Source: a virus (lineage: Duplodnaviria > Heunggongvirae > Uroviricota > Caudoviricetes). From it: a stretch of 48,461 nucleotides of DNA. The notes beneath the pieces are model-generated. The model did no database searches, had not been told where the DNA came from, and saw nothing but the letters and a program-made list of their open reading frames with translations. Position 1 is the first letter of the stretch; every line of letters starts with the position of its first letter. The stretch lies in IMG/VR virus record IMGVR_UViG_2778261094_000010, positions 1 through 48,461 of that record; one strand, written 5' to 3'. This document shows, piece after piece, positions 11,077 through 34,549 of this stretch. Position numbers and translations under genes: made by a program.

Positions 11077-12572
11077 TATGCTGACTCCTCTGAATACTGA
11101 AGACGGAACTGGTTAACCACCGCAAAGACACGTAACTGATTAACATAATCCGGCGGGAACAGCGTATTCAGTCGGTTCGGGTTATCCGCATCACGCTCAA
11201 CTATCAGATACTGTTTAAACAGATCGTAATTTTCCACAATACCGGCACGCTCCATCTGACGATATGTCGCCAGAAGTTCCCCTTTGATAACGGCAGGAGT
11301 GACAATCGCCTGCCCCGGACCAAAACGGGTACCATCATTTGCCAGCTTGTGACGTCCGTACTTGCTTGTGATGACCGATTTCAGTTTGCGAAGAACATAT
11401 GCACTGGTATGCAGAGTTTCACTGTCCAGATAGCTGTTGTCTGCCACGCCATACGCATTCTTTTTGTAGGTGGTTACAGAACGCTGGATCCGCAACGTGC
11501 CGCCTTCCACATAAGCCGTCGCCACGCCGTGAGATAAAAGGGTCTGCTGCTCTGTCATGATGAATCGCTTACCTTTCGGTGCCGGAAGCATCCCCACCAG
11601 CTCCCCCGTCTGTGTCGGACGGGCAGGATCATTCCGGATAAATACCGCTTCACGGGCAAGGCGACTGGCAACCAGTTCATCGACAGGCGACTGGGTTTCT
11701 TTTTCGTAACCGGCAAGCGTGATATGTTGCTGATTATGCATATCTCCGGCACCAACCAGCTCTGACAGCGTTCCCAGTTTTGCGGTATAGACATGCCCGT
11801 ATAACTGGCGCGCATAACTCCAGCGACCGCTGCTGTCATTCATTTCGGTCATCATCATATTGATGGAGGCGGCATCGTTGAACGGCAGACCGATAAAATC
11901 GAATACCTCATCGCCCATAGCGGCAACAGCGGCGGTAAGATCAGGTGCTCCACTACCTGCAGTTCCGGCTTCCGTCACGACCTGAAGTCCCGCAGGCAGA
12001 ATTTCACCACCACCAGAACCATAATAATTCAGGCAGACAGGTAGCTCGTTACCATACAGCCCCTTATGACGGGCAGTCAGTGTCACCACACCTGCATCAG
12101 ATGACGCCGTAAACGGCAGGGTGATAACACCATTTACCGCTTCCTTAATCGCGGTGGCAACCGCAGTGGCATTATCGCCATTCACCACAGGCACCTGTAC
12201 ACGGGAGCGCCCGACATACAGACTCAGGGTGCCGCTTTCCTCTGCTTCTCCGGTAACCGTCACCCTGACCGTTGCCGCCGCCCCTTTGGCTTCCGGTACC
12301 GTAATAACATACAGTTCACCGAAAGGATCTGTCTGACGGTATACTTCGACCATACGCGCCAGCTGGCTCCCCGCTCCACAAATCTGACGGGCATAATCTG
12401 CCGACGGCATCAGCACCAGGCTGTTAACCTCAATGGCAGCATCGTTGCCTGCATGCCCAATCAGTAATGCAGGCGCGCTGGTCACCGCTGTATTTGCCGC
12501 AGAATTGTCCATCTCGGCGTAGAACAACGGCACCAGCGTATTCGACGGAACAGCACTAAAACTTATTGTCAT
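11076..12572 (-). CDS. Tail sheath protein
   Basis: 498 aa; sheath-like sequence and position upstream of the tube gene. Confidence 0.9.
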   Translation of the reverse strand: MTISFSAVPSNTLVPLFYAEMDNSAANTAVTSAPALLIGHAGNDAAIEVNSLVLMPSADYARQICGAGSQLARMVEVYRQTDPFGELYVITVPEAKGAAATVRVTVTGEAEESGTLSLYVGRSRVQVPVVNGDNATAVATAIKEAVNGVITLPFTASSDAGVVTLTARHKGLYGNELPVCLNYYGSGGGEILPAGLQVVTEAGTAGSGAPDLTAAVAAMGDEVFDFIGLPFNDAASINMMMTEMNDSSGRWSYARQLYGHVYTAKLGTLSELVGAGDMHNQQHITLAGYEKETQSPVDELVASRLAREAVFIRNDPARPTQTGELVGMLPAPKGKRFIMTEQQTLLSHGVATAYVEGGTLRIQRSVTTYKKNAYGVADNSYLDSETLHTSAYVLRKLKSVITSKYGRHKLANDGTRFGPGQAIVTPAVIKGELLATYRQMERAGIVENYDLFKQYLIVERDADNPNRLNTLFPPDYVNQLRVFAVVNQFRLQYSEESA

Positions 12573-12739: not shown

Positions 12740-13303
12740 TTATTTCTGAGGGAAACGCATTTCCAGATGGTGCTCAATGTCACCATCCGGGCCAGTACCA
12801 GGATCGATGTAATCCACATCAATACTCAGCAGGGATAAATCCGGCAGGGCATTCACGTCCTCTGCCTGTCGCGTGTCTTCTTCCGTGATTTCATACTTCG
12901 CCGTAAAATCAAACTGGTAATACAGTTCGTAACGGTTCAGATCCAGCAGGGTGCCACCGGCATAAACAATCTCGCCCCCCTGCGGATCCGGCATCCATCC
13001 AAGCAGGGCTTTCCAGAGTTCTCTCCGGACATCATGAACGGCGTCATAGGCTGCCCACTGCCCTTTTTCATCACGCTCATTGCTGAGCACAACAATCACG
13101 GAGAAGCCTTCTGTCAAATCCTGCCAGTAATCGGTCTGTGATTTTTGTTCCCCCGGTGCATCGTCAGAGGGAACCACATAGGCAGCAGGCAGTCGCAGTT
13201 TTCCGGCATCAGGGATCGCCTTAAACTGCGCCGCGCCACCAACACGATCCTCAAAACGCGGGCATCGCTCACGCAACGCCGCAATTATCGTTGTCAGTTT
13301 CAT
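12740..13303 (-). CDS. Putative tail completion / neck protein (Mu gp37-like)
   Basis: 187 aa acidic ORF between the head-tail adaptor genes and the sheath gene. Confidence 0.55.
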   Translation of the reverse strand: MKLTTIIAALRERCPRFEDRVGGAAQFKAIPDAGKLRLPAAYVVPSDDAPGEQKSQTDYWQDLTEGFSVIVVLSNERDEKGQWAAYDAVHDVRRELWKALLGWMPDPQGGEIVYAGGTLLDLNRYELYYQFDFTAKYEITEEDTRQAEDVNALPDLSLLSIDVDYIDPGTGPDGDIEHHLEMRFPQK

Positions 13304-17874: not shown

Positions 17875-18611
17875 TTAAAGCGAGCGAATACCAACGCTGA
17901 CCAGATGTTCAGACAGATCCGGCTCCGGTTCACCGCCATTGACCAGCATCCGGCTCATTGCTGTAAACATCGCAACAGGGCCGTCGATTTTGGCTTCCGG
18001 CGTGGATTTATTCGGGAAGATATTGTCGTTTTTGTCCGGTTTTACCGTAACGTTAGACATCATCCAGTTCATGACCGGATGATTGCTGTGGTGGAAACGC
18101 CCGGCATAGACCAGTGATTCCGTTTCCTTCATGGCCTCTGACAGATTGCGGACCGTCTGCGGAACTTCCACCAGCGGTATACCTTCTTCAGTCAGCGCCA
18201 GACTGAACTGCATTGCGCTCCACGGGTCAAATCCCAGTTCCCTCAGGTTTTCACCGCCAATCCATTCCAGTAGGTCACTTTTGATCTGAGCATGATCGAT
18301 AACATCACCATCCGTCAGGATGAGCTTACCCATCTCCGCCCACTTCCGGTAAAGTTCTGCCTGCTGCCGTGAGCATCGTTCCAGCCGTCCTTCCGGAAGC
18401 CAGAATTTAAAATCGGCATGAACATGCCCGTTATCCGTTCGCCAGAGTTTTGCCGCCGCACAGATATCAATCTTATGAGCAAGGTCGACGCCGACCCACA
18501 TGGGATATGTTTTCAGCTCATGCTGTGGAGCAATGTATTCGCACTTCTCCCACTTAATCATGTCCATCCAGGCAGACTCTGCTGTTACCCACACATTCAT
18601 GTGTTTGGTAA
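17875..18611 (-). pseudogene. terL: Helper prophage terminase large subunit, C-terminal nuclease-domain fragment (3' half of a terL split by the satellite)
   Basis: Translation NVWVTAESAW...WVGVDLAHKID...KIDGPVAMFTAM aligns with the C-terminal nuclease domain of the intact satellite TerL (NIWCQGATPW...AGLDLSSTSD...KIDPSVAALMAF); the reading frame runs up to the 7-bp core at 18605..18611. Confidence 0.8.
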
Positions 18612-18620
18612 GAATATTTC
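18601..18620. repeat. Left attachment junction (attL-like): exact 7-bp core TTGGTAA at 18605..18611 plus imperfect flanking match
   Basis: TTGGTAAgAAtATT here versus TTGGTAAaAAaATT at 33522..33535; marks the boundary between the terL C-fragment and satellite DNA. Confidence 0.65.
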
Positions 18621-18894
18621 AAGTTTTTTAAAATCACCTGTATATCAATCGTTTAACATGAAAAAACAGTCTTTATAAATCATCAAGCAATACACAGCGC
18701 AATACACGTATCTGTATTGTTTTAATGCTGATACACACCGTTTTTTGATACAGTGATTCGACCTACCATCGCGAAGCATTTTTTATTTCTTGTGTGTAAC
18801 AATCTGACGAGGTGAGCACTCAAAGAGATAAGAGGCAGTAGAAATTTCGATCACCCCCCTGAATGCAATTTTTCGTATATATATACAAAACAGC

Positions 18895-19047
18895 GCGGGT
18901 TATGCGGGTTAGCGGGTTATCTTCGCGTGCTAAGTATTTTTTGCTCTTTAATATCAATGCGTTAAAAAACAACGTATTTAAATATCAGCCAGAATGTAAC
19001 CCGCAAGACATTCAAAATAACCCGCACCCCTCCCTCAAATAACCCGC
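18895..19047. repeat. Iteron cluster B: 3 tandem GCGGGTTA(T/G) repeats, AT-rich spacer, 3 inverted (A)TAACCCGC copies
   Basis: Direct copies at 18895..18920, inverted copies at 18997..19004, 19017..19025 and 19039..19047, preceded by a TATATATATA tract; same repeat unit as the cluster downstream of the replication gene. Confidence 0.7.
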
Positions 19048-19128: not shown

Positions 19129-20790
19129 TTACACACCATCAAACGCCGCAAGCCGCTCTTTGTGGCTGTCGCTCATATCGAATGCAAATTCCTCATGCTC
19201 TGCCTGGAATGTGCCAAACGCCATCAGCGCCGCAACGCTCGGGTCTATCTTGTTGGATGATTTTTTCTTGTTCGGCTTGATATTGGCGTTCGCGTCACTC
19301 TGCATCACAACATTACTCATTGACCAGGCCAGCACCGGATCGCCACGATGCACAATCACCTTCCGGTTAACAAAAACTTCGAACGATTTCGCCGCCGGAC
19401 TGAAACGAAGGTATGTTTGCGGGAACGGCTCCACCTCAAATCCTGCCCCCTGTAGCTGCGTCCTCAGGTGCGTGGCGTTCCATGTATCGAAGCCCACCAG
19501 CCTGATATTGAAATTCTCTGCATCCGCCATGATGTCATCACGGATACGGTCATAATCAATGCAGTCACCCGGTGTTGTGCGTATCCAGCCCGCCTTTACC
19601 CACTGGCGATAGATGGCGCGGTTTTTATTGGCGGGGTTCTGTAGCTGAAATTCAGGCAGATAGTGACGGGAAACCAGCATAATCTTTTTACCGACCGGAA
19701 AGGCATAGCACACGCTGGAAATATCGCTGGTTGATGATAAGTCCAGCCCCGCGTAGCACTCCTGCCCGTATAAATCCGCCTCCGCGAACGTTCCGGCGCA
19801 CTCCGCCCATGCACCGTTACCCATCCACGGCGTAGCCCCCTGACACCAGATATTGAATCGCTTGGTGAGCATTTCCACCCACTGCGACGGAATACCCCGC
19901 GCTTTCTGGATGGTTGAGGCCAGTTTTTCACGATCGACGGAAACATCGATATTGGGATTCGCCTTTATCCACATCGCCGGATCGTCAACCTCGCTTTCAT
20001 CATCCAGCTCGTAAATCAGCACGAACATGGATTCGTTCACCTCTTCACCATCCAGTATCTGGCAGCAATAGTCATAGTGTTGTTTACAGGCTGAAACAAC
20101 GTTGCTCCCCGATGTGGTGATGGCAAATAACAGCCCCTCCGGACGCGCCCCCATTCCCAGTTCAAGCGCGGAATAAACCCCGTTGTCAGGGTGCAGGTGA
20201 TATTCATCCACAATGGCAAGGCTCGGGTTTGTACCTTCAATGGTTGCCGCTTTTGCTGCCAGTGGCTTTAACAGGCTGTTGGTTTTCGGGTGTATCACCT
20301 TGTGTGCCTGAATATTTACCCGCTTTCGTAACGGTCGGGATAAAAGGCACATCTGACGCGCATCATCAAACACGATCCGCGCCTGATCACGACTCACGGC
20401 GGCGGTGTAAATATCCTGCTGCCCGTTTTCCATAACCAGAAACCAGTTAGCCAGGATAGCGGCGACCGTGGATTTGGCATTTTTTCGCGGCACTTCAATG
20501 AATGCGCTGGTGTATTTGCGCCGTCCGGTGGCCTTAACCTTAAAGCCCAGGATGCACGCAAAGGCGAACTGCTGCCACGGCTCCAGCTCAATGGGGCTAC
20601 CGCGCATTGCGCCTTTTACGTGCGGACACACCCTGGAAAAGGCAATAAACCGCTCCACGACCTCCGGATCGAACGTGTAAAGGGGGTTTTCAAGGTCAGA
20701 AAAATACCGTTTAACGGCCTGTTTCAGTCGTTTACAGGCCGTAATTTTGCCGTTTTTTACGCCTTCTGCGTACTCATGCCAGGCGGTCAA
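19129..20790 (-). CDS. terL: Satellite terminase large subunit (intact)
   Basis: 553 aa with N-terminal ATPase and C-terminal nuclease domain (AGLDLSSTSD, KIDPSVAALMAF); apparent TTG start at 20788..20790 overlapping the TerS stop, preceded by a GAGGAAGAGGA ribosome-binding site. Confidence 0.9.
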   Translation of the reverse strand: MTAWHEYAEGVKNGKITACKRLKQAVKRYFSDLENPLYTFDPEVVERFIAFSRVCPHVKGAMRGSPIELEPWQQFAFACILGFKVKATGRRKYTSAFIEVPRKNAKSTVAAILANWFLVMENGQQDIYTAAVSRDQARIVFDDARQMCLLSRPLRKRVNIQAHKVIHPKTNSLLKPLAAKAATIEGTNPSLAIVDEYHLHPDNGVYSALELGMGARPEGLLFAITTSGSNVVSACKQHYDYCCQILDGEEVNESMFVLIYELDDESEVDDPAMWIKANPNIDVSVDREKLASTIQKARGIPSQWVEMLTKRFNIWCQGATPWMGNGAWAECAGTFAEADLYGQECYAGLDLSSTSDISSVCYAFPVGKKIMLVSRHYLPEFQLQNPANKNRAIYRQWVKAGWIRTTPGDCIDYDRIRDDIMADAENFNIRLVGFDTWNATHLRTQLQGAGFEVEPFPQTYLRFSPAAKSFEVFVNRKVIVHRGDPVLAWSMSNVVMQSDANANIKPNKKKSSNKIDPSVAALMAFGTFQAEHEEFAFDMSDSHKERLAAFDGV

Positions 20791-21130
20791 GCTCGTCCTC
20801 TTCCTCTGTTTCCGGTGGATTTCTGCGGCGACTTACCGGGTCAAAACCCAGCAAAGAAGCCATTTTGATCATTATTCTTTCAGCGTCAGCCTTTGCGCTC
20901 AGGGCGGGGTTTCTGCTCTCGCTGCCCTGACTGTTAACAATGCTGAACCCGCGCGTGGCAAGGTCTTCGACGGCTTTGCGGTATATGGAGTAGTTAACAC
21001 AATACAGCTCCAGATTGCTCCAGTCGGCGGGGGTAAGGTCTTCCCGTCCGGAAAGCTGGCGCGATTTTTCCTTCCACTGCCTGACCGCGATTTCATCCAG
21101 GTAAGCGGGGGCTTTTGGTGGTCTTGCCAT
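20774..21130 (-). CDS. terS: Satellite terminase small subunit (P27-like family)
   Basis: Translation from MARPPKAPAYLDEIAVRQW resembles P27-family small terminases; start assigned to the ATG at 21130. Confidence 0.8.
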   Translation of the reverse strand: MARPPKAPAYLDEIAVRQWKEKSRQLSGREDLTPADWSNLELYCVNYSIYRKAVEDLATRGFSIVNSQGSESRNPALSAKADAERIMIKMASLLGFDPVSRRRNPPETEEEDELDRLA

Positions 21131-21418
21131 GTTCTTTTTTCGCCCAATTATTTTCAAAAAAATTCCCGTGCACAAAAATTTGAGGAGGCGGTCGGTGTCC
21201 GGCAGGGACGGTTTCGTCCTGAAAACCACCCCCACCCCCTCTGACGGCCTCACCAGCGATTGCGAAAACATTCCATGACCTCGCGGTCACGGTCGGTTAA
21301 TCACTTCGCTGTGGTGCGTTTTGTGCGCCCTGTCCTGTTGGCTTTGTGCCCTGTCTCCTGTGTCTTCCATAAGTCACGCTGCCTTATCAGTCCACGTATC
21401 AGCCTGGTTTGCTCCTGT

Positions 21419-25398: not shown

Positions 25399-25647
25399 TT
25401 ATTGTTTCACTGGCTCCCGCATTCTGCGTCTTATTTTCCACAAATATTCGATCATCGCTTCCACCTGCTCACGGTTGGTTGCGAAAATTTCCCCGGTCAG
25501 TGAGCTACGCAGAAAATCATGATGATCCACAAAAAATAACGCATCGGAAGAAAGCAACCGACGATATTTTTTTGCTGTCGTGGTTTCCAGATCATCAAAA
25601 CCATGAAGCTTTTTATGTTGCTGAACTTCTTCAAATGTCACTGGCAT
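25399..25647 (-). CDS. Hypothetical satellite protein
   Basis: 82 aa ORF overlapping the upstream gene end and followed by a terminator; no recognisable motif. Confidence 0.4.
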   Translation of the reverse strand: MPVTFEEVQQHKKLHGFDDLETTTAKKYRRLLSSDALFFVDHHDFLRSSLTGEIFATNREQVEAMIEYLWKIRRRMREPVKQ

Positions 25648-26180
25648 GTATCCCCCTTTGCTGCCCGGCGCTGGCGCTTGTGCTTCTCATTCAGCACCAT
25701 CAGCCGTGTTTCTGCCTCCTGCTGTTCCTGTGGTGTCACTTCCCCACATGGCTGGCCTTTCAGGTCGTAACGTGCGCCACCAGCTATCAGGGCGCGGTAA
25801 TAGCGCGGAGACTGCGCATAGGATGCCAGCGTCGCACGTAATACCCCCGACCCGAATGCCAGCCCCCTGACGGCGATATCCTGCATCAGGTCGTCGAATA
25901 TCCCCACCTTAAGCGGCTTCGGTGCTTTATGGCTGAATAAGTCAGGCCACATCTCAGTGAGGCGGTTAACGCGTCGGCGGTTTTTGCGCTGCCTTTTGGT
26001 CATATGCTGCCACGGTGTCGCCCCTGCGGTCTTCTGTTTGCGGCTCTGCTGTGCGTTCTGATTATCGGGTATCACTTTATGCGCCGATGTGGTTTTATCC
26101 TGCTCTTGCGCCGCCTGCGTCGTTTTCTGCGGCGTGCCGTAAATGCCTTTCGGCTTCCGGTTAATGGTCAGCGTTGTCAT
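25638..26180 (-). CDS. ProQ/FinO-family RNA-binding protein (putative RNA chaperone)
   Basis: Basic N-terminus, then a FinO/ProQ-like core (PLKVGIFDDL...RYDLKG). Confidence 0.55.
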   Translation of the reverse strand: MTTLTINRKPKGIYGTPQKTTQAAQEQDKTTSAHKVIPDNQNAQQSRKQKTAGATPWQHMTKRQRKNRRRVNRLTEMWPDLFSHKAPKPLKVGIFDDLMQDIAVRGLAFGSGVLRATLASYAQSPRYYRALIAGGARYDLKGQPCGEVTPQEQQEAETRLMVLNEKHKRQRRAAKGDTCQ

Positions 26181-26706: not shown

Positions 26707-26829
26707 GCGGGTTATAATCGCACTTTTGCGGGTTATAACTGCCGTTTTGCGGGTTACGTGCGGGTTATTGATTTCCTTTTTATTCATACAGTTAATGCAC
26801 TTATACACAGGATAACCCGCATAACCCGC
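26707..26829. repeat. Iteron cluster A (putative satellite replication origin): 4 direct GCGGGTTA(T/C) repeats, AT-rich spacer, 2 inverted ATAACCCGC copies
   Basis: Direct copies at 26707..26715, 26728..26736, 26749..26757 and 26760..26768; inverted copies at 26812..26829; located just downstream of the replication protein gene. Confidence 0.7.
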
Positions 26830-26852: not shown

Positions 26853-28976
26853 TTAATCTTCTGCCTCAGGCTGGAACATCAGCACGTAAAAAACATGCTG
26901 CTTCCCCCCAATTTTGCTGAGCGCCTTTTTCTTGTAACGGCGGTCGTTCCCCTTTTCCAGCATCCCCGCCGCATCAAGCGCTCTTGCAAAATGCGACGGG
27001 TTAAATCCCTGTGCGATCTCACCTTCAAACACATGCGGGAACGTGTAAAAACGGAACTCGTCATCTTCGTTTCTGATACTCCCCTTTCTGTATCCGGCAA
27101 GTTCTTTAATCGGTAAATCACGCTCGTCGGTGTTGGGCCACGGAAGGTATCTGCTGAATCCGAACGACGCTAAAAAAGCCTCTGCCTGTTCAACCATCTG
27201 TTTAAATTCCCTGTTACCCGTGCCGAACTCCTTCACCCAGGCATTAAAATTATGCTGTATGGCATCGCGGCACGCCTGAACATCCCAGCCAGTAATATGA
27301 CCGGACAACACTAACGCCGCCTCAAGCATGGCAAATCGCTCCCCCACACGGTGAACCTGTTCGCCGTAGCTCTCCGGTATCAGGTTGCGCCACCGTTCAC
27401 GGCATGCCCTTACCGTGTCCTTTGCTTCCTGCTGGTGGTTTGCCAGCCATTTAACCCACTCTCGACCCGCCGCCCCGTGATTTTCTGTCCAGGCATCCTT
27501 TAACGCGTCTGCGTGCGCCTTTCCGGTGCTGTATTCGTGAAACTGCGTGGCTTTTTCCATCGGCACGTTAAGCAGGCGGACAAGCTGCCCCGCCTTGACT
27601 TTTATCCCCTCCGTTTTGAGGAATGTTTCAACGTCCATTTCTCCGGTGCTGATTGCCACCGTGCGCCAGTGTTTGATCTCCCTGTTGCCGCCGTCCTTCG
27701 CCCCCTGTAATTTCCCCGAACCGTTAAACAGCGTATAGGCTGACGTGGACACCTCCCGCGCGTTTCCGGCCTGACCTATTTCATCCAGGGGTAACAGCCC
27801 ATCATTATGTGCTTCGGCCTCGTTGGCGATACCTAACGCCGTGCCGTACCAGGTCAGCCGTTGTGCGTCCGGCTCTCCCCATAAACTGGATGCGATGTTC
27901 TGTGTGGTGGTTTTCCCTGCCGATGACTGTTCGAAAAGATGTACCCCGAAGCCGTCAGCCCCCACCAGCCCGATTAATGGTGCGGATAACGATACCGCCA
28001 CACCCAGCATCATGGACGGATTACCACCAGCCAGCCGCGCCACGGTATCGCGCCAACCCTCCGCCGTTCCTGCCACGGAATAGCCATTAACAGCAGCCGT
28101 TTTTCCGGTAAACAGGGCTGGCTTTTCGCAATCACCAATGACCGAACCGTCCGGCATGATGTACGCGCCAAAATGCCAGCCCGTTGTTGTGCTTAACTGC
28201 CATTCCTCATGGCTTCCGCTTAACTGCATCCAGTCAGCCAGGATAGCCCTGTATTTGCCGTTAGTTGTTACGTTCAGTCCGTGGTCTTTCAGCAGCCGCC
28301 AGCCGTCACGGTCGCCAATGCCACCGCACGGAACCGCCATTGTGATGACTTCATGGTTTGCTAATTTTTTCCAGCGCATCACGCGGTAATGCTCTTTACC
28401 GATTGTCCCCGTTCCCAGTAGTTCAAGCGGGGAACATAACCACGTCTCAGGCCGGATAATTTCGCCTGACTGCTTATCCACTTTTGGCGTTACCCAGAAA
28501 ACACCATCGGCGCGACTTTCAACGCGGGGCTTTAATTCATCATCGCCCTGGCTTTCTGTAATTTTTTTCTTTAAAGGCAACACCAGACTTTCCCCGCGCT
28601 CGTATTCGTCTTTGAGGCGAGGCAACTGGTCGGATAAATCCGCCGGGCTGGTGTCAGTTATACCCGCGTATTCGTATACGGTCTTCACGCCAGCCACAGC
28701 CAGCAACGTGACGATCTGTGTAAGGCTACGTTCAGTGATGTGCCCTGCGCGGTAAACACGCACACACTGACGGCTATCATCAATAATTTGATAACCGGTA
28801 ATATCTTTCAGGTGTTCATCTGACAGAACGACAGGTGGCACATTGTCGGCGGCAATATGCTTACCTGCCCATTCCTGCCACTCTTTCGCATGGCTCCACG
28901 CATCACTACCCGCAAAGATGATAACCTCCGTCATTTTGTCGGCTGGCTGGTGCTTTAAGTTTGGTGCGCGCTTCAT
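26853..28976 (-). CDS. Replication protein, DUF927-type primase/helicase (P4 alpha-like or PICI Rep-like) with Walker A motif
   Basis: 707 aa; Walker A-like SSAGKTT within a DUF927-like helicase core; adjacent iteron cluster; ATGA-type overlap with the upstream ORF. Confidence 0.75.
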   Translation of the reverse strand: MKRAPNLKHQPADKMTEVIIFAGSDAWSHAKEWQEWAGKHIAADNVPPVVLSDEHLKDITGYQIIDDSRQCVRVYRAGHITERSLTQIVTLLAVAGVKTVYEYAGITDTSPADLSDQLPRLKDEYERGESLVLPLKKKITESQGDDELKPRVESRADGVFWVTPKVDKQSGEIIRPETWLCSPLELLGTGTIGKEHYRVMRWKKLANHEVITMAVPCGGIGDRDGWRLLKDHGLNVTTNGKYRAILADWMQLSGSHEEWQLSTTTGWHFGAYIMPDGSVIGDCEKPALFTGKTAAVNGYSVAGTAEGWRDTVARLAGGNPSMMLGVAVSLSAPLIGLVGADGFGVHLFEQSSAGKTTTQNIASSLWGEPDAQRLTWYGTALGIANEAEAHNDGLLPLDEIGQAGNAREVSTSAYTLFNGSGKLQGAKDGGNREIKHWRTVAISTGEMDVETFLKTEGIKVKAGQLVRLLNVPMEKATQFHEYSTGKAHADALKDAWTENHGAAGREWVKWLANHQQEAKDTVRACRERWRNLIPESYGEQVHRVGERFAMLEAALVLSGHITGWDVQACRDAIQHNFNAWVKEFGTGNREFKQMVEQAEAFLASFGFSRYLPWPNTDERDLPIKELAGYRKGSIRNEDDEFRFYTFPHVFEGEIAQGFNPSHFARALDAAGMLEKGNDRRYKKKALSKIGGKQHVFYVLMFQPEAED

Positions 28977-29944: not shown

Positions 29945-30041
29945 AGCTACCTCGATACGCTTTCTATCGTTGGTGGTTAGAAGCCCGGTTAGTGTTAGCG
30001 CACTGCCGGGTTTCGTCGTTTCTGCACCTTGCATCAGTAAG

Positions 30042-31927: not shown

Positions 31928-32161
31928 TCAGGGTTTCCATTCACCCTTTACCCATTCCAGCACCTCAGATAAGCGCCAGACTTTTGTTTGTGGGCCAATA
32001 CATATTTTCCGTGGAAATTTTCCTTCCTTTTCAAGTAATGCTCTGTGTCTCCTGCCAAGAGCTGTTAACCATGCACATTCATCTTCCTTAATCATCCTGT
32101 CGATTGTTTTATCATTTTCAAGTTCTTCACGCGTAACTATTTCAATCATTACCGTCACCAC
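31928..32161 (-). CDS. alpA: AlpA-family transcriptional regulator / excisionase-like protein
   Basis: 77 aa with AlpA-like helix-turn-helix (LTALGRRHRALLEKEGKFPRKICIGPQTKVWRLSEVLEWV); immediately downstream of and overlapping the integrase gene. Confidence 0.75.
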   Translation of the reverse strand: MVTVMIEIVTREELENDKTIDRMIKEDECAWLTALGRRHRALLEKEGKFPRKICIGPQTKVWRLSEVLEWVKGEWKP

Positions 32162-33350
32162 TAATTAGCTTATTCAGATAGTCGTACCACCAGTTCATAG
32201 CTTCTTTTTTTCTGTCCATATACTGACTTCTGTTATAAACCCCGGCAACACCGCCTAATGTGTGCCCAAGCAACTGTTCAACCACATTATGTTCAAAACC
32301 ATGATCACTTAGCTTTGTGGCAAACACTCTTCGCATATCATGCGCCGTCCATTTTTCCGAGTGTTTCATCCTTTTCCATGTCTTACCGATAGTTACGCTT
32401 GCCGTACACTGACGCATATCAAACCCAATCACATTTTCTTTGTTACCTGTTATTTTTTTTAACGTAACTAACCAGTTAAACATGCCATCAGGAATCGGTC
32501 TGATTATTTCCCTGCCATTTTTGCTATGATCAGCGGGAACGCGCCATAATTTCTTATCAAAATCCCACTCTACCCAGGACGACAGTAATACTTCTGACAG
32601 TCGACAACCAAAAACTACCAGGAAACGTAAAATAATTCGGTTTTCATATGATAATTCGTGATTGTCATAATCAGTATTAATACTTCGCCATAAATCTCTG
32701 ATTTCATCATCTGTTAAAACCCTGCTTCTTCGCGCAGACTTTTTTCCCACATCACAGACCTCAAGATCATCAATTTCATGACTAATCGCGTATTTTCTTA
32801 CCCTACAAAATTTAAGCGCCTGTTTTGATATACGCAACAAAGCTCCGGCCTGTACAGGTGCTACTTTTTTTATTTTGTCAAAACACTTGATCCACATAGA
32901 TATAGAGCAATCACTAAGTGGTACATGACCAATCACCGGATAAATATGTTTACCAAAGCACTGCCTGATATGTTCTGCTCCCCTACGCTTATCCATTGCA
33001 TAATTATCAAGCCAGTATTCAAGTGCCTCACGAACGGTAACAGGTTGCAAGGTGGCTTCCCGTTCAATTTTTATCTGAATCCGTGGATCTCTGCCCTCCG
33101 CAAGCCAGGTTCGACACTGATCGCGCATCTCTCTCGCTGATTTGAGACTCAGATCAGGATATTTTCCAAGTGTCAGCCAGATGGGCGCGGTTCCCCTTCC
33201 CGCCAGTCTGTAAAAGAAAACAAAACTAACACATCCGTATTTACTGACCCGTACCGAAAGCCCGTTACCATCAGCGATGGTTTCCTGCCTCTCACTCCTG
33301 CGCCCAAGCAGGGAACGAAGTTTTTTATCGCTCAGTTTGTTTAGCGCCAT
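32142..33350 (-). CDS. int: Tyrosine integrase (P4-type site-specific recombinase)
   Basis: C-terminal catalytic motifs (HDMRRVFAT, LLGH, GVYNRSQY); start assigned to the ATG at 33350 (MALNKLSDKKL); lies about 170 bp from the right junction core. Confidence 0.9.
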   Translation of the reverse strand: MALNKLSDKKLRSLLGRRSERQETIADGNGLSVRVSKYGCVSFVFFYRLAGRGTAPIWLTLGKYPDLSLKSAREMRDQCRTWLAEGRDPRIQIKIEREATLQPVTVREALEYWLDNYAMDKRRGAEHIRQCFGKHIYPVIGHVPLSDCSISMWIKCFDKIKKVAPVQAGALLRISKQALKFCRVRKYAISHEIDDLEVCDVGKKSARRSRVLTDDEIRDLWRSINTDYDNHELSYENRIILRFLVVFGCRLSEVLLSSWVEWDFDKKLWRVPADHSKNGREIIRPIPDGMFNWLVTLKKITGNKENVIGFDMRQCTASVTIGKTWKRMKHSEKWTAHDMRRVFATKLSDHGFEHNVVEQLLGHTLGGVAGVYNRSQYMDRKKEAMNWWYDYLNKLISGDGND

Positions 33351-33517
33351 GTGATTTATAACCCGTTTTTGCAATACACAGTGCAATACACAAATGATGA
33401 AAACAGCCAGAACCTTCCAGAAAAAACAAAAACGACGAACAAGAAAAAATCTTTTTCTTTCATTTGGTTACTAAAAAAATCAGGACAGGTCGCACTGTTG
33501 TTACGGCGTGATGTTAC

Positions 33518-33537
33518 TTTCTTGGTAAAAAAATTCA
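33518..33537. repeat. Right attachment junction (attR-like): exact 7-bp core TTGGTAA at 33522..33528 plus imperfect flanking match
   Basis: Direct repeat of the 18605..18611 core; boundary between satellite DNA (integrase side) and the helper terL N-terminal fragment. Confidence 0.65.
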
Positions 33538-34549
33538 CCCGCGCAGAGACCTGTTCTTTCGCTTTTTTCGCCAGGCGACGCAGATCATCCCAGCGTTTAC
33601 AGATGCCCAGGCCGGGATTCGCTTTCTGCCAGACCGTTTCATCAAACGGATCATCTCCCTCATCGAGGGTGTAAATAATCGCAAAGTAGGAGTCGTCTTT
33701 TACCGCGCCCTCCACGTCGCTGTTATAGCCTCGCAATACCTTGATGGCGTAATCGCGTTGCTCGTAACAAATCCCTTCCTTGTTAAAGCCAGCCGTGGTG
33801 ATACCAAATAACAGGGACTGCAGACGGGCACCGGTTGCCGTTTCCAGAACGTCCCACACGTCGCGGGTTTTATGTGCATGCAGCTCATCAATAATGGCGC
33901 AGTGGATGTTCAGACCATCCAGGTTGTTTGCATCCGAGGAAAGCGGTTCAAATTTTGATGCGCTCTGCTCCTGGTAAATCGCCAGCTTGTTGAAATCAAA
34001 CAACCGCCCGAGTGTCGATCGGGCTTTTCTGACCATATTTTTGGCGTCTTCAAACACGATTCTGGCCTGGTCACGCGTGGTTGCGGCTGAATACACCTCA
34101 GCCCCGCCTTCACCATCTGCCCCCGTCATATACAGACCGATACCTGATGACAGGGTTGATTTTGCGTTTTTACGGGCGACTTCGTTGTACGCTGTCCGGA
34201 AACGGCGCACCATCACCGGGCGTCCGCTGCCATCGCTGCGCATGACAACTTCCCCGGTCTCTTCATTCACCAGCGGAATGACAAAACCAAAAATATTAAT
34301 GAGGATAAAAACATGCCAGTCCATCAGTTCAATGGGCTGACCTGCCAGCGCCCCTTTTACATGGGGCACAAATTTGTAGAAATTCAGGATGTGCTGCGCA
34401 CGGGGTTCACTGAAATAAATCCCCCGCTCTTCGCCGTACTTCAGATCATCAAGAAAACGCTGGCAGGCCAGACGGACAAATTCACCAGCGACAATTTCTC
34501 CTGCAACAACACGTTCGGCGTAGCGGATCCCGTCAGCCACTTTTGCCAT
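33522..34549 (-). pseudogene. terL: Helper prophage terminase large subunit, N-terminal ATPase-domain fragment (5' part of a terL split by the satellite)
   Basis: Translation through DETVWQKANPGLGI...ARVNFFTKK parallels satellite TerL (DDPAMWIKANPNID...EMLTKRFNIW), then runs into unrelated low-complexity sequence (VTSRRNNSATCPDFF...) after the junction at about 33522; the ORF's true stop is at 33356. Confidence 0.8.

Follow-up and report, generated by a model that had tools for sequence, protein, structure and literature searches.

A candidate second origin unit at the far end of a capsid-forming satellite embedded in a prophage terL gene

Descriptions of PICI origins show one iteron field, located beside pri-rep. 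The satellite analysed here carries such a field directly after its rep gene and, in addition, a second cluster of the same repeat at its opposite end, behind the terminase gene, which raises the question of what this distant cluster is and what it does. The literature searched, on PICIs as well as capsid-forming PICIs, yielded no account of another iteron cluster far from the first. The comparisons presented below indicate that the far-end cluster (cluster B) is probably a second, complete origin unit recognised by Rep, which has been displaced, is maintained by selection and acts in the replication of the satellite. All positions refer to the window, defined here as the whole 48.5-kb stretch of viral DNA that was analysed, unless another locus is named.

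The satellite and its far-end iteron cluster

In the window, the prophage's own terL (17875-18618 and 33522-34549) is split by a co-oriented satellite, with the core TTGGTAA[A/G]AA[A/T]AT at both junctions; the att cores were placed where the homology to the intact phage terL (ON470580) ends (Table 1). Pfam analysis revealed that the satellite genes are arranged on the minus strand in the order int, AlpA, Bro-N, DUF4222, Rep, SSB and ProQ/FinO, followed by the late genes for capsid, protease, portal, connector, HNH, terS and terL. The element therefore has the int-alpA-Bro-rep core, the late genes of its own and the location within a prophage late gene that characterize capsid-forming PICIs and helper-embedded satellites. 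The helper-embedded configuration is already described in a preprint (bioRxiv 10.1101/2022.07.18.500453), and the same prophage-satellite composite was found in E. coli 181.1, 042 and O177:H21. The gene of the ProQ/FinO-family RNA-binding protein (25638-26180, minus strand) lies between SSB and the capsid module and is present in several relatives (L002, L089). A weak match to the SymR antitoxin RNA of Rfam (29945-30017, plus strand; 32.8 bits compared to a gathering score of 61, E = 0.006) was located in the Bro/regulatory zone.

Direct reading and repeat finding revealed that cluster B consists of three tandem copies of GCGGGTTA on the plus strand (18895-18919) and three inverted copies on the minus strand (18997-19047), and that it adjoins a TATATATATA near-palindrome, the tract cgTATATATATAc (18874-18886) lying inside the near-palindrome TTTTCGTATATATATACAAAAC. 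The first-pass annotation had described three tandem and three inverted copies of one unit beside a tract, placed between the satellite terL stop and the left junction and about 7.7 kb from the origin; both the description and the coordinates were correct, and the distance from cluster A to cluster B was determined as 7.66 kb. Its position on the excised circle was also borne out, where ~250 bp would separate cluster B from attP, with int beginning ~0.6 kb downstream of the cluster, and where the arcs between A and B would measure 7.66 kb and ~6.97 kb of the 14.9 kb. The exact GCGGGTTA 8-mer occurs 14 times in the window, compared to 1.24 copies (sd 1.19) expected from 100 dinucleotide-preserving shuffles, the maximum of which was 4. 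Six of the 14 copies belong to cluster B, six to cluster A and two are singletons in the prophage, and no third cluster was found in the window when one mismatch was allowed.

The DNA around and between these iterons is easily melted by prediction: within the satellite, only one 20-mer is less stable than the palindrome TTTTCGTATATATATACAAAAC, and the spacers of A and B both rank among the five least stable 40-bp windows. The palindrome precedes the tandem iterons in every B-type module, for both E. coli iteron types and irrespective of whether the module is rep-adjacent or at the far end. No Rfam family was detected in or near cluster B at E <= 0.1, no promoter or terminator was found in it on the relevant strand, and no terminator-like site was found after the satellite terL. 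The small open reading frames at 18820-18972 and 18863-19042 were rejected as coding because the repeats are conserved while the spacers vary and carry indels.

Table 1. Location of the features of the satellite, of its two iteron clusters and, in the last three lines, of far-end modules in other loci whose Rep uses another iteron.
Feature	Position	Strand	Remarks
attL core TTTGGTAAGAATAT	18605-18618		Inside prophage terL gene
Conserved end segment	18762-18866		~100 bp long; left of B; accompanies far-end B
Near-palindrome TTTTCGTATATATATACAAAAC	18870-18891		Flanks tandem iterons; candidate unwinding or protein-binding element
Cluster B tandem iterons GCGGGTTAT / GCGGGTTAG / GCGGGTTAT	Starts 18895, 18904, 18912	+	Spacing 9 and 8
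Cluster B spacer	18921-18996		76 bp, 68% A+T
IHF-consensus site TATCAATGCGTTA	18952-18964		Inside cluster B spacer; fits WATCAANNNNTTR
Cluster B inverted iterons	18997-19004, 19018-19025, 19040-19047	-	Spacing 21 and 22 bp
Satellite terL	19129-20790	-	Pfam TerL_ATPase + TerL_nuclease; last gene before cluster B
Unit A iterons	26707-26767	+	Four; starts 26707, 26728, 26749, 26760; spacing 21, 21, 11
Unit A spacer	26768-26812		71% A+T
Unit A inverted iterons	26813-26829	-	Two tandem; 23 bp from rep stop codon
Rep, 707 aa, DUF927	26853-28976	-	Pfam DUF927, E = 1.4e-45
Tyrosine integrase	32142-33386	-	Pfam Phage_integrase + Arm-DNA-bind_3
attR core TTGGTAAAAAAAT	33522-33535		Satellite ~14.9 kb
Orphan module, L002 (STEC383)	12104-12290		Own Rep iteron TTGTCCCA
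Orphan module, L088 (ECONIH2)	12005-12185		Own Rep iteron GGTAGACA
Orphan module, L126 (CEA106S)	13007-13185		Own Rep iteron TGTTCACC

Other sequence elements were located near the ends of the satellite and in its late region. A doubled motif, GCAATACACAGCGCAATACAC, was found at 18687-18709 (plus strand) with a partner at 33371-33393, both following the pattern GCAATACACAG[C/T]GCAATACAC; these are probably the arm-type sites of the integrase, and they may correspond to the 'doubled motif' noted for integrases of this clade. The conserved end segment to the left of B shares ~83% identity with PICIs that use other integrases and survives in a degraded remnant (L005). No match to lambda cosN within 5 mismatches was found in this segment, either in the window or in most relatives, and a lambda-like cosN site lies elsewhere in L004 and L088. 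The intergenic region between HNH and terS (21100-21290) is conserved as DNA in 62 related loci and is the most likely place of the satellite cos site.

Relation of cluster B to the origin unit beside rep

Cluster A (26707-26829) abuts the rep stop codon and is the only other GCGGGTTA cluster of the window; PICI origins are known to lie just after the rep stop codon (PMC6092414). Alignment revealed that unit A matches the reverse complement of B in register. The two share three iterons at a 21-bp phase, an AT-rich spacer and then the tandem pair TAACCCGCATAACCCGC, the spacer being 45 bp long in A versus about 76-77 bp in B. In addition, L004 and EcCIEDL933 each have a rep-adjacent unit, adjoining A, to which B is 78-84% identical. 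L004 is the classical PICI of AR_0011; here a module 83-84% identical to B adjoins an A-type module after the DUF927 rep, and in EcCIEDL933 (L086), the prototype of the capsid-forming PICIs (Alqurainy et al., bioRxiv 10.1101/2022.09.08.507074), a contiguous A+B field holds 11 copies of GCGGGTTA, with no similar cluster after terL. The contiguous field was matched by 296 E. coli genomes; it is contiguous in 135 of them, whereas in the remaining matches A and B are apart or only B is present. The same double architecture, also contiguous, was found with the iteron GTGGGTTA in Winslowiella (L035), and with other iterons in 11-13 copies in L010, L024, L025 and L045.

On the strength of the comparisons with L004 and EcCIEDL933 and of the alignment of A with B, cluster B is identified at the sequence level as a complete origin-type unit, an inverted paralog of unit A. 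These data suggest that DUF927 origins of E. coli commonly consist of two opposed units set back to back, the second of which is separated from the first by the SSB-to-terL block in the window. Wherever a far-end B is cognate with the resident Rep (10 of 10 loci), only unit A (4 + 2 iterons) is present beside rep, and these elements therefore still have two units and ~12 iterons, as the contiguous origins do. Two side observations concern variation of this arrangement. In L106 (8012-8044), the contiguous origin has four tandem iterons instead of three, a change of copy number in the tandem set. In L089 (12813-20871) and L101, which are PICIs that do not form their own capsids, A and B are ~10.6 kb apart and bracket three large open reading frames of unknown function (~690-920 aa), with no capsid module.

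In the minimal SaPI origin, an AT-rich centre is flanked on either side by two or more iterons, which face in opposite directions (PMC9371898), and B presents 3 + 3 opposed iterons around such a centre. It has the same repeats as the origin beside rep, with six exact GCGGGTTA each in A and B. A lies directly downstream of rep, and B does not, being ~7.8 kb from the rep stop codon. B has every sequence-level property of a PICI/SaPI origin except the position. The resemblance to the PICI/SaPI origins comprises the DUF927 initiator family, the opposed short iterons around an AT-rich centre and the C-terminal iteron specificity (PMC6092414; Qiao et al. 2022, PMC9371898), as well as the location of unit A directly after the rep stop codon, whereas B, 7.7 kb from rep, lies at the opposite end of the island, beyond the capsid/packaging genes. 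EcCIEDL933 shares with the satellite the gene order, the terminase/HNH/capsid module, the Rep type, the GCGGGTTA iteron, units A and B and the TATA-rich flank, but its units are contiguous by rep and it is integrated in the chromosome, in contrast to the element in the prophage terL.

The Rep of the satellite matched the SaPIbov1 Rep (8tch) with a phmmer E-value of 1.8e-14 and the SCCmec helicase Cch (5dgk) with 3.4e-4, and its match to the NCBIfam Cch1 model was weak and far below the cut-off. By these similarities, Rep is a DUF927 initiator-helicase of the SaPI-Rep/Cch type, a family of self-loading helicases. The Reps of E. coli elements with T(T/C)GTCCCA origins (TTGTCCCA-type) are 93-99% identical to it over residues 201-560 and only 33% identical over residues 621-707, while the GCGGGTTA-type Reps keep 90-97% identity over residues 621-707 even when their N-termini are 44-54% identical. 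The iteron type thus correlates with the C-terminal domain of Rep (residues ~621-707), and the domain-level swaps reveal that PICI replication modules are mosaic. In SaPI Reps, a C-terminal winged-helix domain reads the iterons (PMC9371898). The structural model of the C-terminal 180 residues of the window's Rep was of moderate quality (pLDDT 65), and its best Foldseek matches were weak (best E = 0.03; none at E <= 0.001), namely SaPIbov1 Rep 8tch and the winged-helix protein TcpK. The E. coli 042 element has separated units with the same iteron, and the C-terminal domain of its Rep is 97-100% identical to that of the window. The earlier proposal that one initiator reads both clusters is therefore most likely correct, because both contain the same repeat and the iteron type follows the C-terminal domain of Rep.

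Conservation and occurrence of far-end modules

Far-end B modules were gathered from E. coli genomes and from IMG/VR, the scan of the latter being anchored on the flanking palindrome only. In a comparison of 19 distinct far-end modules, variable positions made up 3 of the 48 iteron columns and 53 of the 108 spacer columns (Fisher p = 6e-8), and the mean pairwise difference per site was 0.0085 in iterons and 0.161 in spacers, which makes the iterons ~19 times less variable. The IHF consensus WATCAANNNNTTR was found at the same place in 24 of 24 distinct B modules, with changes only at the N and R positions. Purifying selection, as read from this pattern of variation, keeps the iterons of B.

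Not every far-end module has a matching initiator. Three of 13 are non-cognate, the resident Rep using another iteron (L002, L088 and L126; Table 1), and each of these elements has six intact GCGGGTTA at the far end together with a complete rep-adjacent origin of its own. B can therefore be retained where no Rep matches it, and those elements do not need it; from these comparisons, it moves together with the far-end segment and can remain in place after the replication module has been exchanged. Between the modules of L002 and L088, 9 of 108 spacer columns differ and all 48 iteron columns are the same, a pattern that could be due to recent exchange or to some use independent of the resident Rep. 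The occurrence of B is also patchy: of the roughly 500 E. coli genomes that carry this terL, only ~67 have B directly behind it. EcCIEDL933 transfers efficiently without any cluster at its far end. A single rearrangement may have given rise to all cognate split elements, which for this reason are not independent cases.

A survey of 80 related capsid-forming PICI loci from other genera revealed that most have one rep-adjacent iteron field and no cluster after terL. When 29 other capsid-forming PICIs were scanned for degenerate far-end clusters at up to one mismatch, only L007 and, weakly, L076 were positive, and three Proteus loci add to these 2 of 29. In Rosenbergiella L007, integrated at fis, the Rep is of the AAA_25 type, the iteron is AAGTGCGGCA and the inverted far-end copy of the origin is ~93% identical. 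The Proteus loci L015, L016 and L020 encode a P4-alpha-like Rep (Zn-ribbon, Toprim, D5_N, DUF5906, Pox_D5), and the inverted far-end copy of the origin in L016 is ~79% identical, with its iterons kept. The Rosenbergiella and Proteus cases look independent because their initiators are unrelated. As a separate observation, the repeat TGTTCACC forms a single contiguous rep-adjacent field in the capsid-forming PICIs L014, L063, L080 and L126, which come from Klebsiella, Pectobacterium, Gilliamella and E. coli CEA106S.

An inverted origin copy after terL could even be an adaptive layout with a specific job, arisen independently with DUF927, AAA_25 and P4-alpha-like initiators, an idea that we put forward only tentatively and consider doubtful. 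If it were true, the opposed units, which bracket the capsid and packaging module, might amplify this module or the adjoining late genes of the helper before excision, or else they might serve to make the concatemers needed for cos packaging.

Proposed role of cluster B and competing explanations

The working model that follows from the reading of B as a displaced origin unit is conditional on the behavior of related initiators. Most relatives carry the two units back to back as one roughly 360-bp double origin, and in this lineage the second unit stands at the far end, after terL and ~250 bp from attL, the two units flanking the SSB/ProQ/capsid/packaging module. The DUF927 Rep, if it acts as the SaPI Reps do, would bind the GCGGGTTA iterons by its C-terminal domain on both sides of the spacer; the AT-rich spacer of B is probably bent by IHF, and Rep would melt this spacer and load itself there. 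The role of B in satellite replication would then be exerted in cis: initiation might also take place at B, or B might be a remote partner paired with A by Rep-Rep contacts. Rep binding, melting, firing or pairing at B are all inferred here from such analogies.

Multi-site origins in which an initiator joins distant sites by looping are represented by R6K, with gamma and alpha/beta, and by EBV oriP, with FR plus DS. The window resembles them in having one initiator and distant site clusters, and cis cooperation between A and B is proposed by analogy; their proteins, in contrast, are unrelated to the window's Rep. The P4 satellite offers another comparison. It has ori and crr, repeats of one initiator in both orientations and kilobases apart, crr being defined by its cis requirement for ori, and its alpha protein is a primase-helicase with Zn-ribbon, Toprim and D5-type domains. 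The first-pass annotation had likened the two clusters to this ori plus crr arrangement, and the comparison stands for the layout, that is, two clusters of one initiator's repeats several kilobases apart in a satellite of ~12-15 kb, but fails for the initiator family and the repeat sequence. According to Pfam, the window's Rep shows only the DUF927 domain and none of the alpha architecture, its iteron is GCGGGTTA and not the P4 type-I iteron TGTTCACC, and the distal cluster of the window, unlike that of P4, is a paralog of the origin unit itself. In Proteus, L016 pairs a P4-alpha-like Rep with a distal inverted cluster.

Two other readings of B, a regulatory role and a neutral relic, fit its anatomy and conservation less well than an origin unit does. 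P1 incA and the extra iterons of iteron plasmids limit initiation, and Rep might likewise bind B for regulation, so that B would titrate or handcuff Rep or, on the circle, form a roadblock that depends on Rep and separates the late operon from attP-int. We regard this as unlikely. Initiator sites outside the minimal origin are indeed a known control device in iteron plasmids (PMC4980987), and terL and int, which flank B once the element is circular, are transcribed in the same direction with no terminator-like site after terL; however, a full origin layout, with opposed iterons, a meltable spacer and a conserved IHF-like site, would be superfluous for titration, the same unit belongs to the origin itself in relatives, and a satellite bursting after induction has little obvious need of a copy-number limit. 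It is likewise rather improbable that B is a functionless leftover of PICI recombination, carried along with the far-end segment and still undecayed. The non-cognate modules of L002, L088 and L126 and the mosaic replication modules of PICIs would agree with such an origin, as would the fact that most capsid-forming PICIs have no far-end cluster. Against it stand the low variability of the iterons relative to the spacers in the 19 distinct modules, the spacer-only differences between the orphans L002 and L088, the IHF-like site kept in all 24 distinct modules, the absence of unit B from the rep-adjacent origin of cognate split elements, and the fact that inverted copies which have diverged but kept their iterons recur with two unrelated families of initiators.

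A function in trans, in the non-cognate cases and possibly more widely, would have B replicated by the GCGGGTTA-type Rep of a co-resident satellite or competing for it. Intact orphan modules in elements with other Reps speak in its favor, and so does the abundance of GCGGGTTA-type Reps in E. coli, where 296 genomes match the window's origin. However, STEC383 and ECONIH2, the two orphan genomes checked, each have a single matching place and no GCGGGTTA-type unit A elsewhere, and the window, in which Rep and B are cognate, would be left unexplained, so that we give this reading very little weight. Least probable of all is a site for packaging or integration, in the form of a cosB-like site for the terminase small subunit or of integrase arm sites, to which the position of B just after terL and ~250 bp from attL would point. 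The repeat has exactly the sequence of the rep-adjacent iterons, and its type goes with the C-terminal domain of Rep and not with the terminase or the integrase. Most elements whose terL is 70-93% identical have no such cluster and use unrelated iterons. In addition, B is found with different integrases and at four att sites (prophage terL, hpt, clpS and thiM), the block conserved in 62 loci with this terminase is the HNH-terS region and not the far end, and the probable integrase arm sites consist of a different motif, GCAATACAC. B was rejected as a cos/terminase site because it is Rep, and not the terminase, with which its repeats co-vary; conservation of the far-end region is confined to a subset of E. 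coli.

The reading of B as a displaced origin unit therefore describes an unusual split-origin layout, not a new kind of element. The helper-embedded satellites described by Tommasini, Mageeney and Williams (bioRxiv 10.1101/2022.07.18.500453) have, in the passages of that preprint consulted, the same integration, Bro, replication and late zones, but these passages place the origin in the replication zone and do not mention a second iteron cluster at the end of the late zone. The present comparisons suggest that paired opposed units can be separated by 7.7-10.6 kb with the iterons still under selection, and a natural experimental contrast is provided by EcCIEDL933, where the units are adjacent, and the element of the laboratory strain E. 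coli 042, where they are separated and have the same iteron. If the distal unit is active, these satellites would have either two origins or a long-range Rep-Rep interaction, which would bear on the assembly of self-loading MCM-like Reps and on the way satellites make concatemers for cos packaging. It would also bear on the exchange of late-gene modules, because the two units bracket precisely the late zone, which is variable.
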